From assembly GCA_965367815.1 (NCBI GenBank), contig CBDUKN010000011.1, positions 2,361-66,360 on the forward strand: a stretch of DNA of 64,000 nt. The letters are read 5' to 3'. This document shows positions 5,996 to 56,812 of this stretch, piece by piece. The number at the start of each line of letters is the position of its first letter. The first letter of the stretch is position 1. Made by a program: the position numbers and the translations under genes. The DNA is from an uncultured Thermoprotei archaeon (lineage in GTDB: Archaea; Thermoproteota; Thermoprotei; Thermofilales; B15-G2). Under the pieces are notes generated by a model. That model was given only the letters and a program-made list of their open reading frames with translations, did not search any database and had not been told where the DNA came from.

Positions 5996-6153
5996 TATTC
6001 TTCGCGCACATACTCTAATATAATGTGGAATGTGTTCTTACCGCACTTCTTACAGTAAAGGTAGAGCTGTTTAAAATCCCTTATATCATAGCCTACTCTA
6101 AGCTCTTTCTCTTCACCGCACTCTTGACATTTAATCCTCCAGTATCCAGTCAT
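5995..6153 (-). CDS. Small zinc-ribbon protein (52 aa) ending in Glu-Glu; not in ORF track
   Basis: Manual translation MTGYWRIKCQECGEEKELRVGYDIRDFKQLYLYCKKCGKNTFHIILEYVREE; SD GAGGTGA overlaps the stop of the upstream RimK-family gene. Confidence 0.85.
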   Translation of the reverse strand: MTGYWRIKCQECGEEKELRVGYDIRDFKQLYLYCKKCGKNTFHIILEYVREE

Positions 6154-6158
6154 TTCTA

Positions 6159-7040
6159 TCACCTCTTTACTTCTTCTTCAACATACTTGACGATAGCTAA
6201 AGGTACGTCGACTCCTGTAACTTTACAGAGTTCCTCGAAATCTGGACTCCCGTTAACTTCTACTATTACCGGCCCCTCTTTCGTCTCTACTATGTCTACG
6301 CCGGCGTAGCCTAGTTTAAGGCACTCAGCTGCCTTAACGGCTATTTCTCTATACTCGGGTGGCAGCGTACACTTTTCACCTCGTCCCCCTTGAGCTATAT
6401 TCGTCTTCCAAGAGCCTGGTGCAGCATACCTATACATTGATGCAACAACCTCTCCTCCAACTACAAACGCCCTTATATCTCTTCCCGGCTTCTCGAGGTA
6501 CTCTTGAACATAGAGCGGCTTTCTAAACTCTAGGAGAGTCTTCATGACTTCAAAAGCCACATCAGGGTCGCTTACTTTCACAGATCCGTAGCCCCTGGAG
6601 CCCATTATGGGCTTAACTACTACCTCTCCTAGTCCTTTTACAGCAGTAAGCGCTGACCCTAAGTTTTCTGAAATAAAAGTCCTTGGAACAGGTAGTCCCT
6701 CTTTCTCTAGTATAGCTAAAGTGAGGTACTTATTTCGAGTAATGAATAGAGCCTGCGTAGAATTAACTACCTTTATTCCATACAGCTCCATATGCATAAA
6801 GAAGCCTATTCTAGCTAAAAACTGCTCAACGCTTATTGAGAGACCAAAAGACCGTAAAAGTACAGCATTAGGTAAAAAAGACCTATTTCCTACAATAAAC
6901 CTCGGGCCCCCGCCTATCCATGCGCCTATTCTTCTGAGAGAAACATAAATTCCCCTATGTCCTCTTCGCTTTATTGCATCTAAAAGCCTCCTGCAAGCAT
7001 GAGGCGGGAGCGGAGCGTCGTGTACTACAGCAATATCCAT
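6159..7040 (-). CDS. RimK/LysX family ATP-grasp alpha-L-glutamate ligase
   Basis: RNKYLT, VVKPIMGSRGYG, YVQEYL, DIRAFVVGG, WKTNIAQGG, EVNGSP; probable start MDIAVV at 7040 (track starts at 7103). Confidence 0.92.
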   Translation of the reverse strand: MDIAVVHDAPLPPHACRRLLDAIKRRGHRGIYVSLRRIGAWIGGGPRFIVGNRSFLPNAVLLRSFGLSISVEQFLARIGFFMHMELYGIKVVNSTQALFITRNKYLTLAILEKEGLPVPRTFISENLGSALTAVKGLGEVVVKPIMGSRGYGSVKVSDPDVAFEVMKTLLEFRKPLYVQEYLEKPGRDIRAFVVGGEVVASMYRYAAPGSWKTNIAQGGRGEKCTLPPEYREIAVKAAECLKLGYAGVDIVETKEGPVIVEVNGSPDFEELCKVTGVDVPLAIVKYVEEEVKR

Positions 7041-52203: not shown

Positions 52204-52340
52204 TCATTCAGTATTCTATAGAGGTGTAATAAATATATACGGTCTTAGCAATGATCGATTGATTCTTGGAAAAATATAAGTAGACAAGACGAATTAAAGA
52301 TTATATTTTTAGACATGAAATGATATGAGGGGGGCTGGGG

Positions 52341-54581
52341 GTGCAGGATATAGTAAAAATATTGAGAATTATAGGTAATGAAGTTAGAATGCAAATAATT
52401 AAACTATTATATAATGAAGGAGAGTTATCTTATGGCGAATTAATGCAGAAGATCGGTATCGCAAGAGATAAAAGTGGAAAATTTGGTTATCATTTAAGAC
52501 AATTAGTAGACAATAGAATAATAGAAATAGATAGAAACACAGGAAAATATAGATTAACTGATCTAGGATTTAAGATATTTGATTTATTTAAAGAATTTAG
52601 GGAGTCTTATCTTGCTCTACAAAGTAGAGACATGCTTGTTTCGACATCAAAATATGTAATGGAGTACTTTGATAAAAATAAAATAATAGATAGTCTAGTC
52701 AGAGAGACTGGTATCAAAAGGTCGCTGGCTAAGGAAGTAGCAGTTGATGTAGAGGAGAAACTTAAGAATGCAAATCTACGCTATGTTTCAACAAACTTAA
52801 TAAGAGAACTAGTAATTGCTACGCTACTTGAGAAAGGATGTGAAGAATATATAAAGAAATATAGTAGATACGGTTTACCTGTCTACGATGTAAAAAATAT
52901 ATTTGAATCTTATGATTTAGTAAGACCTTACACTCCCAATGTTTTGCTAAGAATACTTGGGAGGTCGATAATCGAGGCTTATACAATGTCTCAGCTAATA
53001 CCTCCTAGTGTTCTTGTTGCGCATTTAAACGGATATATACACATAGCGAACAGCAGTGATTGGTTTATTGGGGTTGAAGACATTAGACATGATTTATGTC
53101 TATGTTTGTCGAAAGAAAATTTTATGGGAAATAAATTTTTTCCCGAGATAATCATACCTGCTCCGAAAAACTTTAGAGAGGCTCTTTTCTCAATGTATAT
53201 TACATTAAATTATTTTAAAGATTATTATTATATTTCTCAAATCATAGACAACTTTAATTTTATTTTGTCACCTTTTATAAGTAAAGGTGATCAAGACAAA
53301 GTATCATTGGAATTACTCTATTTTACTAAAATACTCAACATAAATAACTTAAGTTATAGAAACTATAGACCCGTAGCACTAGCTTGTGCGTTTTCTTTAC
53401 CTAAAGAATACGAAGATATTAAGATTAAATACAAAAATACAGGTTTATTCTCCTTTGTAGACTACATGGATGAAGCGCTACTATTAGCAAAAACATTGTT
53501 GAATGTTTTAGCAAATGTTAATAGCAAGTATCCTTCAAAAACTCCCATAGTAGTGCTCAAAGTAAATGACAGAGTCCTAAGGGATGATGATCTTCTAAGT
53601 ACTATATATAAGGCGCTTGCATCAAGAGTTCCAATAACACTTGTTAAGGAAGAAAACTATGTTTCTACTTCTAGTGAAGGTATACAGCTCGAAAAACCTA
53701 AGGAAGTACCGATTCTGCCAGCTTACGGGATAATTTCCTCTATTGCTGTTAATTTGCCTTTAATAATGCTTGAAAGTCATACGGAAGAAAAGTTTTTTGA
53801 CAAAATATATAACGTAGCAGATTCTGTGGCGCTGGCATTTAACAGCAAACATAGCTTTATTAAAGATATTGTAGCTAAAAGAAGGCTAAAACCGTTAACA
53901 GAGTATATACTTAAAGGAGACTATTACTATAGGTGGGAATATTCGCGTTATTTAATTTCCTTTATAGGAGTATACTTTACAGCCTTTTTGCTAGCGGGTA
54001 ACGATAACAAAGATCACATCATATCAACTGCTAGAAAACTAGTAAAAGAACTGATCAAGGTATTTAGAGATGCTGTTAAAAACGAAGAGTATACAGTAGA
54101 GTTTTCTTTTATGTGTAACGATAGAAACTTTGTAAGAGTAGTCAGTATTATTAGAAACGTACTAAGAAAAAAGAACATTCCAATAAAAAATCTAGAGCAA
54201 TATTTCTCTCCACTAACATTGATGCCCTACAATATAGCGGGGTCACTCGAAGAATACTTAAAGATTTATCATAGCGAACCATTTAGAGAACTTAAAGGAG
54301 GAGTTTTTCTACGGGTAGATCCTATATACTTCACTAAAGACGACTTAGTTACTCTGCTAGACTACTTGCTTAAATACGAGAGGCCCTTAATGTTATCTCT
54401 GGACTATACTTATTGTCCACGATGCCGAATAATCCTAGATGGTTTTCATCAATTTTGTCCAAAATGTTTAGCAATGATACCAATGGGAGCTCACTTTTCT
54501 AGAGTTTTTTCGGTGTATGAGCCAATAACCTATGTTCACAGCTTCTATCGAGATGAATACTTGAGCCGAAAAAATATATAG
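52341..54581 (+). CDS. ArsR-type wHTH + ATP-cone + degenerate class III ribonucleotide reductase (NrdD) domain; probable pseudo-enzyme
   Basis: N-terminal wHTH (KFGYHLRQL...YRLTDLG), ATP-cone (FDKNKIIDSLVRETG...LIRELV), RYGLPVYDV, AVNLPLI, Zn site CPRC...CPKC; glycyl loop reads SRVFSVY. Confidence 0.8.
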   Translation: MQDIVKILRIIGNEVRMQIIKLLYNEGELSYGELMQKIGIARDKSGKFGYHLRQLVDNRIIEIDRNTGKYRLTDLGFKIFDLFKEFRESYLALQSRDMLVSTSKYVMEYFDKNKIIDSLVRETGIKRSLAKEVAVDVEEKLKNANLRYVSTNLIRELVIATLLEKGCEEYIKKYSRYGLPVYDVKNIFESYDLVRPYTPNVLLRILGRSIIEAYTMSQLIPPSVLVAHLNGYIHIANSSDWFIGVEDIRHDLCLCLSKENFMGNKFFPEIIIPAPKNFREALFSMYITLNYFKDYYYISQIIDNFNFILSPFISKGDQDKVSLELLYFTKILNINNLSYRNYRPVALACAFSLPKEYEDIKIKYKNTGLFSFVDYMDEALLLAKTLLNVLANVNSKYPSKTPIVVLKVNDRVLRDDDLLSTIYKALASRVPITLVKEENYVSTSSEGIQLEKPKEVPILPAYGIISSIAVNLPLIMLESHTEEKFFDKIYNVADSVALAFNSKHSFIKDIVAKRRLKPLTEYILKGDYYYRWEYSRYLISFIGVYFTAFLLAGNDNKDHIISTARKLVKELIKVFRDAVKNEEYTVEFSFMCNDRNFVRVVSIIRNVLRKKNIPIKNLEQYFSPLTLMPYNIAGSLEEYLKIYHSEPFRELKGGVFLRVDPIYFTKDDLVTLLDYLLKYERPLMLSLDYTYCPRCRIILDGFHQFCPKCLAMIPMGAHFSRVFSVYEPITYVHSFYRDEYLSRKNI

Positions 54582-54606: not shown

Positions 54607-54969
54607 ATGCAGATGATCGGTACTGCTAAAAGATATCTTGAAGCTCTGCTTGAACCGAAATTTTTGTCCTATGTAATAATTTTCGTTGCAGCACTACTTT
54701 TAGGAGGAATCTTATACGCTCTTGTTGTAGCATCGCCGAGAGAGCTTCAGGCATTTATCATACAACACAATTTGTATCAGTCTTTAACAGAAGTCATAGT
54801 TACTGCAATTTCTTATATATTTGGGGCATTCAGCATAGTTTACATGTATTCAGCGTTAAAAAAGAAAACTGAAGAGTCTTTAAAAATGGCTGGATTATCG
54901 GTGCTGCTTCTACTAATAACATTTCTAATGTTAAGCTATCTATATTATCTAAAAATATATGCAAGATAA
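54607..54969 (+). CDS. OSTC/OST3-OST6-like three-TM membrane protein
   Basis: LLLGGILYALVVASP...AF...Q..TE...G...LKI resembles the eukaryotic OSTC/DC2 pattern as I recall it. Confidence 0.6.
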   Translation: MQMIGTAKRYLEALLEPKFLSYVIIFVAALLLGGILYALVVASPRELQAFIIQHNLYQSLTEVIVTAISYIFGAFSIVYMYSALKKKTEESLKMAGLSVLLLLITFLMLSYLYYLKIYAR

Positions 54970-55508: not shown

Positions 55509-56138
55509 ATGGCTGAAAAGAATATACATGAAAATACCAGTAAATTTAGGAAAATAAACGTATATAAAAAAGCTATACGGTGTCTTGGAATAGCTGAAAG
55601 CTTTAGAAAAGAGAACAAATATGCAGTATTAGTTGGAGTAGTTATGAGAAGTGACTTTCTAATAGATGGAGTCTACATAGAGAGAGTAACTGTAGGAGGA
55701 ATGGATTCTACGAAAGCTGTTATAAGAATGTATTACAATACTGGGAGAAATGACATTAACTTTATTTTAATAAATGGTGTAATTATAAGCTACTACAACA
55801 TAATAGATTTGAGCGAAGTATTTAACTCAGTAAAAATTCCTGTAATATCAGTAACCTACAGAGAATCAAAAGGATTAGAGGAAATAATTAGAAAGAATTT
55901 TCCGGACTGGAAAGAAAGAGTAGAAGTTTACAGGAAAAATGGAAAACGAGTACCATTACCTCTTAGAACAGGACATATAGTCTATGTGAGATATTTTGGT
56001 GTTGACTTTAGAGAATGCATGCATTTAGTTAATAAATTTACTGTAGAGGGAAAGCATCCAGAGCCAATTAAGGTGGCAAAAATGATTGCTAGAAGCATTA
56101 ATAAGTATGTGTGTTGTAGTAGGGGGAGACTGCTGTGA
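55509..56138 (+). CDS. DUF99 family protein (endonuclease V-like)
   Basis: LGIAESF, VTVGGMDST, YNIID, PEPIKVA. Confidence 0.88.
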   Translation: MAEKNIHENTSKFRKINVYKKAIRCLGIAESFRKENKYAVLVGVVMRSDFLIDGVYIERVTVGGMDSTKAVIRMYYNTGRNDINFILINGVIISYYNIIDLSEVFNSVKIPVISVTYRESKGLEEIIRKNFPDWKERVEVYRKNGKRVPLPLRTGHIVYVRYFGVDFRECMHLVNKFTVEGKHPEPIKVAKMIARSINKYVCCSRGRLL

Positions 56139-56812
56139 AGGAGCACGAGAAAGTGTACATATTGATGAAAATATCGCTAAAGGGAGGAATTTTTTCTCCG
56201 GTAAAAATAAGCACTAGTGAGCTAGCTAAGTATATCAAATGTTCTCAGCAGTCTGCGTCTCGTAAGTTAATAGAGTTAGAGCAAGAAAACTTAATTATTA
56301 GAAGAAAATCCATTGAGGGAACATATATTATGATAAGTGAAAAAGGTTTAAGTTTACTTTATAGCTACTATTTAAAGTTTAAGAAAATTTTCGAGAAAAT
56401 TAATGAAGTAGTAATACTGAGAGGCACTGCTGTATCAGGATTAGGTGAAGGAGCCTACTACGTCTCATTACCCTTCTACTATAAGCAGTTTAAAGAAAAA
56501 TTAGGATTTGAGCCTTATCCGGGGACCTTTAATGTTAAACTAGATAGTGATAGTATAAAAAGAAAAAATATTTTGAATTATATTAGCGGAATAAAGATAA
56601 GTGAACACTATAATGGTAAGAGAAAATACGGAGGAGCCAAGTGCTTTTATGCTATAGTAAATGATAAAGTTAAAGGAGCATTAATTCTTATAGAGAGAAC
56701 ACATCATGGGCCTGAGATAATCGAGATAATAGCCCCCCTGTGTATTAGGAAAGTCCTCAATATTAAAGACGGAGATCCGGTAGTAGTAAAGGTTTACTTA
56801 GGACTATACTAA
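56135..56812 (+). CDS. ribK: CTP-dependent riboflavin kinase with N-terminal wHTH (RbkR type)
   Basis: [16 protein letters not shown]; [22 protein letters not shown]. Confidence 0.94.

Follow-up and report, generated by a model that had tools for sequence, protein, structure and literature searches.

What becomes of a ribonucleotide reductase (RNR) that appears to have lost its radical chemistry and carries a winged helix at its N terminus? This question is raised by an open reading frame (ORF) at 52341-54581 on the forward (+) strand of a 64,000-nucleotide (nt) stretch of DNA from an uncultured Thermoprotei archaeon (the whole stretch is called the window below, and the ORF the window gene). 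A first-pass annotation of the sequence had taken its product for a class III RNR turned into a DNA-binding pseudo-enzyme and had suggested a transcription factor that senses (deoxy)nucleoside triphosphates on an RNR scaffold. Our analysis leads to a similar reading: the window gene probably encodes an RNR-derived, nucleotide-responsive transcription factor with a winged helix-turn-helix (wHTH), directed at the genes of RNR and of deoxynucleoside triphosphate (dNTP) supply and functionally analogous to NrdR.

Domain architecture of the window protein

The window gene is a single, uninterrupted reading frame of 746 amino acids (aa) with a GTG start and zero internal stops. The wHTH, ATP-cone, NrdD-like body, and zinc site that had been noticed at first pass are all there: the Pfam models DUF7347, PF03477, and NRDD matched above their cutoffs, and the four Cys of the zinc site are present. 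The parts of the gene are as follows.

52341..54581, + strand: intact ORF with wHTH, ATP-cone, NrdD body (predicted to be dead), and zinc ribbon; GTG start, stop codon included
52362..52580, + strand: ArsR-like wHTH, aa 8-80, the presumed DNA-binding head (Pfam DUF7347, E = 2.2e-11)
52638..52871, + strand: ATP-cone, aa 100-177 (Pfam PF03477, 38.0 bits versus a gathering score of 25.8)
52926..54572, + strand: NrdD-like ten-stranded barrel body, aa 196-744, predicted to be catalytically dead (Pfam NRDD, Foldseek, hhalign)
54414..54467, + strand: C-terminal Cys4 zinc ribbon CPRC...CPKC with C692, C695, C706, and C709 (sequence and family alignment)

The wHTH reached 44.2 bits with DUF7347 (cutoff, 27.6), and the ArsR-type models all stayed below their cutoffs (HTH_20, 20.2 versus 27; HTH_5, 15.3 versus 22; NF033788, 27.4 versus 55). 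Among PDB sequences, its best matches were ArsR/SmtB-type repressors (BigR and HlyU), with weak but consistent scores, and a recognition-helix-like motif, G-K-F-x-Y-H-L, is kept across the whole family to which the protein belongs. The body matched positions 6-560 of the 562 positions of the Pfam NRDD profile (PF13597) with 67.8 bits (cutoff, 26.2) and did not reach the level of the NrdD equivalog TIGR02487 (62.2 bits versus a cutoff of 326). An AlphaFold2 (AF2) model of the 746-aa protein had a predicted local distance difference test score (pLDDT) of 70 and a predicted template modeling score (pTM) of 0.67. When this model was compared to the PDB with Foldseek, the top matches were exclusively class III RNRs, namely, those of S. 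thermophilus, P. copri, T. maritima, and T4, with a probability of 1.0 and target-normalized template modeling (TM) scores of ≤0.67.

Loss of the catalytic residues

Can the window protein still reduce ribonucleotides? A profile-profile alignment of 117 family members with canonical NrdDs (hhalign; probability 100, 662 columns) aligned the radical Gly with S724, the Cys-Cys pair of the finger loop with S445/E446, and the bottom-face Cys of the RPFC motif with D247. Neither a Gly nor a Cys is thus placed in the active site, and of the motifs around it, only one is left.

54501..54518, + strand: remnant of the glycyl-radical loop, R-V-F-S-V-Y, with Ser724 in place of the radical Gly
53667..53681, + strand: finger-loop tip, T443-S-S-E-G447 instead of the thiyl-radical Cys (canonical QCC; hhalign)
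53079..53081, + strand: D247 where canonical NrdDs have the bottom-face Cys (RPFC in the host's canonical NrdD; hhalign)
53040..53051, + strand: degenerate substrate-triphosphate motif HxHD, here H-I-A-N, aa 234-237 (alignment)
53751..53759, + strand: N471-L-P, the sole retained motif of the active-site region (Asn in 113/117 family members)

The exchange of Gly for Ser had been proposed from the loop sequence and the codon, and coordinates, codon, and hhalign all agree with it. Ser724 is encoded by TCG (54510-54512), which is two substitutions away from every GGN codon, and the orthologue P0002 has a Thr at the same position. The finger loop, in which the thiyl Cys had been reported missing, indeed lacks it. 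Its tip is flanked by a β-hairpin (440-442/449-451) in the AF2 model, and since Cys is absent from the entire stretch between residues 350 and 591, no shift of the alignment can restore one. The HxHD motif binds the triphosphate of the substrate, and the NxN flap is highly conserved, as known from the structures of the P. copri NrdD (PMC11226230); HxHD is degenerate in the window protein, and no NxN was found in aa 183-212. Gly, both Cys positions, HxHD, and NxN are therefore gone, a loss that extends over the family and includes members in genomes that have neither NrdD nor NrdG. The loss of radical chemistry in the window protein, as judged from its sequence, is strongly supported.

The host has a reductase besides it. 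In its genome (99% complete), a canonical NrdD is encoded on contig C4 (506 bits on PF13597) with RPFC, the finger-loop QCC, and a C-terminal SRITGYY, and a bona fide NrdG is encoded on contig C5 (151 bits, above the cutoff), outside the 64-kb window, in which no NrdG had been seen at first pass and none was found. A class I/II RNR was not found in a profile search of the contigs of the host. Hence, the organism should make its dNTPs with an ordinary class III RNR system, beside which the window gene would be a second, noncatalytic paralogue of nrdD.

Distribution and origin of the family

How common is such a protein? An exhaustive profile search returned 1143 representatives at E<1e-3. The family profile matched 350 of 401 genomes of the phylum, about 330 of them strongly and mostly over the full length (E = 1e-100 to 1e-284); for some families of complete genomes of ~2-3 Mb, there were weak domain-level matches only, or none. 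In Nitrososphaeria, a scan of named genomes gave at least 567 loci, which belong, among others, to Nitrososphaerales, Nitrosopumilales, Nitrosotalea, and "Ca. Methylarchaceae". An apparent rarity of the architecture, for which a word-index search had found two wHTH-containing relatives only, was an artifact of sensitivity and was overturned by the profile and genome searches. The members are labeled in their sources as "hypothetical protein," "ATP-cone domain-containing protein," or "anaerobic ribonucleoside-triphosphate reductase."

Fusion to a wHTH and loss of Gly and Cys are both found across this widespread family. The wHTH is present in 138 of 169 collected sequences, and counts over 117 full-length members gave the following.

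Bottom-face Cys kept: 1/117
Cys in the thiyl column: 5/117
Radical Gly kept: 13/117 (whole glycyl tail lost in 53/117)
NxN flap kept: 6/117
Zinc ribbon with all four Cys: ~90/117
Asn471: 113/117

In 12 named Nitrososphaeria genomes, the family gene itself is the sole match of the NRDD profile (58-106 bits), a canonical NrdD is missing, and no NrdG above the cutoff was found in any of the 12. Glycyl-radical chemistry is therefore impossible there.

A tree was calculated with FastTree from the barrel body alone, in which long branches make the details unsafe. All sequences without wHTH, save two ORFs that are probably truncated, fall to the same side of one branch (local support, 98%), which would fit a family that arose once and long ago. 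The family genes do not pair with the nrdD genes adjacent to them, and the window protein sits with P0002, its 53%-identical relative, on a long branch within the family (stem, 1.25).

Some sequences in or near the family deserve mention on their own. L019 (G013:C47, ORF 178-2181 on the - strand), a high-GC family member from the same taxonomic order, keeps a Gly in a loop that looks canonical (GRVLGYYE) and, in the finger-loop region, a Cys (VAHCGV), but no bottom-face Cys; it may represent an intermediate or a convergent state. Nine NrdD-like proteins without wHTH (P0006, P0007, P0150, P0084, P0102, P0104, P0115, P0116, and P0147) are placed with canonical NrdDs by the body-only tree, although, by simple motif tests, they lack the Gly loop and/or Cys-Cys. 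They may be further, independent lineages of dead NrdDs; P0006 and P0007 are from high-GC organisms. Finally, the host genome (G000) encodes a 285-aa protein on contig C20 (30438-31292, - strand) with a DUF7347-like wHTH similar to that of the window protein and no recognizable ATP-cone, and relatives repeatedly have ORFs of about this length that carry the same wHTH. The match of this protein covers residues 2-170 of the window protein; it was rejected as a relative and is another DUF7347-type wHTH protein without a cone.

Linkage to RNR genes

What do the members of the family act on? The strongest hint comes from the position of their genes. In all 12 named Nitrososphaeria genomes, the only RNR of the PF02867 (class I/II) type is encoded directly 3' of the family gene and on the same strand. 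In a larger set, 53 of 80 Nitrososphaeria loci had an ORF of at least 700 aa 37-354 nt after the family gene, and all 53 ORFs are RNR homologues (E≤1e-79); many of the remaining 27 loci are cut by contig ends. The same holds for a different class of RNR in other lineages: at 8/8 fetched loci, a canonical nrdD (with RPFC, QCC, and RITGYY) follows 170-570 nt after the family gene on the same strand. The family genes at these 8 loci encode the wHTH and lack RPFC, QCC, and GYY.

The adjacency might also have arisen if nrdD had recently been duplicated in tandem; this was considered and rejected, because family genes are also paired with RNRs of the class I/II type and do not cluster with the neighboring nrdD. 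Pairing with the RNR gene of the host, whichever its class, is what would be expected of a regulator, or a partner, that is dedicated to ribonucleotide reduction.

At five loci (L027, L028, L054, L072, and L097), the downstream RNR ORFs are 1110-1215 aa long, and their extra length compared to the usual ~770 aa may be due to inteins or another kind of insertion.

Candidate operators

If the family regulates RNR genes, binding sites might be visible in front of them. Of 38 Nitrososphaeria loci, 18 had a TATA box and, directly after it, TTGAC in front of the family gene, compared to 0/461 control ORFs of the same loci, and a second TTTGAC was often present ~30 nt farther upstream; these loci are orthologous, and part of the TTGAC signal therefore reflects shared ancestry. 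In the spacer 5' of the RNR gene, TTGAC/GTCAA is 7-fold enriched (1.21 versus 0.17 per 100 nt), and palindromes such as GTCAAC-TCTA-GTTGAC occur there. As candidate sites, these motifs would fit both autoregulation and control of the RNR gene.

Besides the TTGAC half-sites, an element GAGCGTCTCAT(T)GAC recurs in the spacers of L038, L043, L052, L060, and L063 (at about 6090-6250 of the locus). It could be an operator, a remnant of a terminator, or an RNA element.

The promoter region of the window gene itself has the following elements, both of which are kept at locus L023 of the 53% orthologue.

52296-52310, + strand: BRE (B recognition element)/TATA-like AAAGATTATATTTTT (also written AAAGATTATAT)
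52328-52337, + strand: Shine-Dalgarno-like AGGGGGGCTG

TAGACA boxes stand on either side of the TATA box, at 52281 and 52310, and are not kept in L023. These boxes, together with a similar AGTCTGGACA in the nrdD promoter, were tried as an operator and rejected, as neither is kept in the 53% orthologue; genome-wide scans gave no enrichment at nrdD or nrdG.

Selection on the window gene

Is the window gene under constraint? In comparison with a 98%-identical relative from metagenome assemblies, there were 33 synonymous and 12 nonsynonymous differences, and the ratio of nonsynonymous to synonymous substitution rates (dN/dS) for the whole gene was 0.092, close to that of the adjacent L10e gene. 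This is strong purifying selection with no sign of decay. By part, and for two adjacent genes, the values were as follows.

wHTH: dN/dS 0.03 (the most constrained part)
ATP-cone: dN/dS 0.07
Barrel body: dN/dS 0.13
Zinc ribbon and tail: dN/dS 0
Adjacent gene for ribosomal L10e: dN/dS 0.07
Adjacent gene for the SpoU methylase: dN/dS 0.16

A model for the function of the family

How could such a protein work? We propose that the family is ancient and derived from NrdD, that it lost radical chemistry and the substrate-binding motifs, and that it gained an ArsR-like winged helix at the N terminus. The proteins would bind DNA via the winged helix, probably as a dimer that is held together by the retained NrdD barrel. 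Their targets would be genes of dNTP supply, chiefly those for RNR, and probably the family genes themselves. The level of nucleotides could be sensed by the part that derives from RNR, through the ATP-cone, the former allosteric sites of the barrel, or both.

It is tempting to go further and to see in the family the missing master regulator of dNTP supply in Thermoproteota, in which the allosteric apparatus of RNR is reused as a ligand sensor; in the lineage of the window gene, the protein would act in trans with a remodeled cone and may read a different nucleotide signal. We consider this extension plausible, and give it somewhat less than an even chance.

Several observations weigh against the proposed function. 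The first is DNA binding, which is deduced from the wHTH: the sole above-threshold Pfam match of this part is a domain of unknown function, and both the wHTH and the C-terminal tail are modeled by AF2 with low confidence.

The second is the sensor. The first-pass annotation had stated that the allosteric domain was kept, and this is correct for the fold (PF03477 above the cutoff), which is the best-conserved segment of the family (LVRTS..IExFDRxKI..) and evidently constrained, but not for the residues expected to bind the ligand. The Lys-Arg phosphate dyad of the classical VxKRDG motif is Thr-Ser throughout the family, according to an indirect mapping by alignments chained from S. thermophilus NrdD over the genome's own NrdD to the window protein. 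The window copy has, in addition, replaced three residues that are otherwise conserved in 85-90% of the family: R101S (52641-52643; Arg in 106/117), N159I (52815-52817; Asn in 101/117), and R171I (52851-52853; Arg in 100/117). Because the dyad and these three residues are replaced, sensing of ATP/dATP through the cone is doubtful in the window copy. Searches of PDB sequences with a profile of the family cone and with single cone sequences retrieved no solved ATP-cone. With HxHD and NxN gone, the former active site may likewise be unable to bind a nucleotide.

The third is the target. The window gene is not linked to nrdD (C4) or nrdG (C5) and is found in a housekeeping neighborhood, whose order is kept in the 98% and 53% relatives. 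A motif common to its promoter and the nrdD and nrdG promoters of the host was not found. The idea of a (d)NTP-sensing transcription factor on an RNR scaffold gains strong indirect support from the relatives, which stand directly upstream of the RNR of their host, be it of class III or of the I/II type, but not from the window copy, which is beside no RNR gene and for which no shared operator was found in its genome. Finally, gene adjacency is equally compatible with a partner of RNR at the protein level.

Alternative explanations

The lack of linkage in the host can also be read differently: the protein may be a DNA-binding regulator that was retargeted in the lineage of the window gene, away from RNR and toward, e.g., the neighboring genes of RNA or DNA maintenance, or toward a different ligand. 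The separation from nrdD and nrdG in a conserved neighborhood would be explained, as would the long branch of the window protein and P0002 (stem, 1.25) and the loss of three conserved cone residues. However, the flanking housekeeping genes have no evident common regulation, no operator was identified in the 137-nt spacer that the window gene has in common with the divergent SpoU gene, and the only functional clue is membership in a family whose other members are linked to RNR. We regard retargeting as unlikely, albeit worth keeping in mind.

In class III RNRs, the NrdD barrel and the zinc ribbon provide the surfaces for dimerization and for the activase. Both are retained in the window protein, the body is under purifying selection (dN/dS, 0.13), and the tight pairing of the genes would fit a physical partner of RNR as well as a regulator. 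It is therefore imaginable that the dead subunit hetero-oligomerizes with the active reductase (NrdD or the class I/II-type enzyme) or NrdG, or sequesters one of them, as an allosteric brake or scaffold, with the wHTH used for protein contacts or as a tether to DNA or the replisome. Three points speak against this. The family is paired with two structurally different classes of RNR and also occurs without any NrdD or NrdG, so that a conserved heterodimer interface is unlikely; the wHTH is the most constrained part (0.03) and is ArsR-like; and in Nitrososphaeria, a gene-specific, conserved DNA motif overlaps the promoter. A function at the protein level thus seems rather improbable to us.

Could the protein still be catalytic, as a reductase of the glycyl-radical or another type that has diverged strongly and relies on other residues? 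It has the full-length NrdD fold, the zinc ribbon, and the conserved Asn471 (113/117), its host has an NrdG activase, and a few members keep the Gly, L019 also the finger-loop Cys. Against this stand the absence of the radical Gly, of any Cys within ~100 residues of the finger loop, and of the bottom-face Cys, HxHD, and NxN; moreover, nearly half of the family has no glycyl tail, the family thrives in genomes without the activase, and the equivalog score is 62 bits versus a cutoff of 326. Catalysis by the window protein is therefore very hard to reconcile with the data. A decaying duplicate of nrdD, i.e., a pseudogene in progress, which the lost catalytic residues and the weak match to the NrdD profile might suggest, is excluded by the intact frame, a dN/dS of 0.092 with all domains constrained, full-length, stop-free orthologues across the phylum, and the conserved promoter and Shine-Dalgarno-like elements.

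Comparison with known systems

To our knowledge, it is largely unknown how RNR expression and dNTP pools are controlled in archaea. The closest functional parallel to the proposed RNR regulator is NrdR, the RNR-specific repressor of bacteria (zinc ribbon and ATP-cone, ~150-170 aa), which binds to paired boxes in the promoters of RNR genes. NrdR is reported to be rare in archaea (PMC9110341). Like NrdR, the family combines a DNA-binding module (here presumed) with an ATP-cone, is tied to RNR genes, and has, in Nitrososphaeria, a repeated, gene-specific motif over the promoter, comparable to the NrdR boxes. Unlike NrdR, its head is an ArsR-like wHTH and not an N-terminal zinc ribbon, the only zinc ribbon of the family being C-terminal and derived from NrdD. 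The proteins are also far larger (600-780 aa) and include a complete, dead catalytic subunit of RNR, the cone is without the classical Lys-Arg dyad, and there is no sequence relationship beyond the cone.

The window protein is homologous to NrdD (PF13597/TIGR02487) along the entire barrel and has its fold. It also shares with NrdD the Cys4 zinc ribbon at the C terminus, the NLP(R) motif, the conserved linker TR-x-G-x-P-V-Y-D-V, and, at the N terminus, an ATP-cone of the archaeal NrdD type. What separates the window protein from NrdD is the loss of the radical Gly, the thiyl Cys, the bottom-face Cys, HxHD, and NxN, the extra wHTH, and a score far below the equivalog cutoff; the family, in addition, occurs in genomes without NrdG. 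The N-terminal 80 residues resemble the ArsR/SmtB winged-helix repressors and match ArsR-type HTH models with weak scores below the cutoffs; only DUF7347 passes a curated threshold, and the effector domain is an RNR and not a metal site. In sum, the protein is not a member of NrdR, and most of the features that define NrdD are missing from it; in the proposed function, it would resemble NrdR and other regulators derived from enzymes. In the open-access full-text literature (subscription journals being outside the scope of the search), we found no description of the architecture, nor any mention of it in two major RNR and NrdR papers.

A nearly universal protein of Thermoproteota that is encoded before whichever RNR its host uses is a testable candidate for the missing RNR regulator of archaea. 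If this is true, the family would fill the role of NrdR in archaea, including the globally abundant ammonia oxidizers that are important for the nitrogen cycle, and it would offer a remarkable example of how an entire radical enzyme can be reused as a sensor domain. There is also a consequence for annotation: the label "anaerobic ribonucleoside-triphosphate reductase," which many members carry in databases, wrongly implies anaerobic dNTP synthesis, e.g., in the aerobic Nitrososphaerales.

Genomic neighborhood

Upstream of the window gene are the genes for the SpoU methylase, L10e, and a DUF2192 protein; the SpoU gene is divergent from the window gene, and the spacer of 137 nt is common to both. 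The neighboring genes, like the composition of the DNA, are archaeal. Downstream follow the genes for a small membrane protein, a 179-aa ORF, an endonuclease dU, and a riboflavin kinase fused to a helix-turn-helix (HTH).

The small protein directly 3' of the window gene (54607-54969, + strand) has 120 aa, ~3 predicted membrane helices, and no Pfam match; the 98% and 53% relatives have a gene of about the same size at this place. The endonuclease dU (PF01949, 195 bits; 55509-56138, + strand) and the HTH-fused, CTP (cytidine triphosphate)-dependent riboflavin kinase (56135-56812, + strand) are also kept in this order in the relatives. An enzyme that acts on dU in DNA is thus encoded two genes 3' of a putative dNTP regulator, which may be a coincidence.

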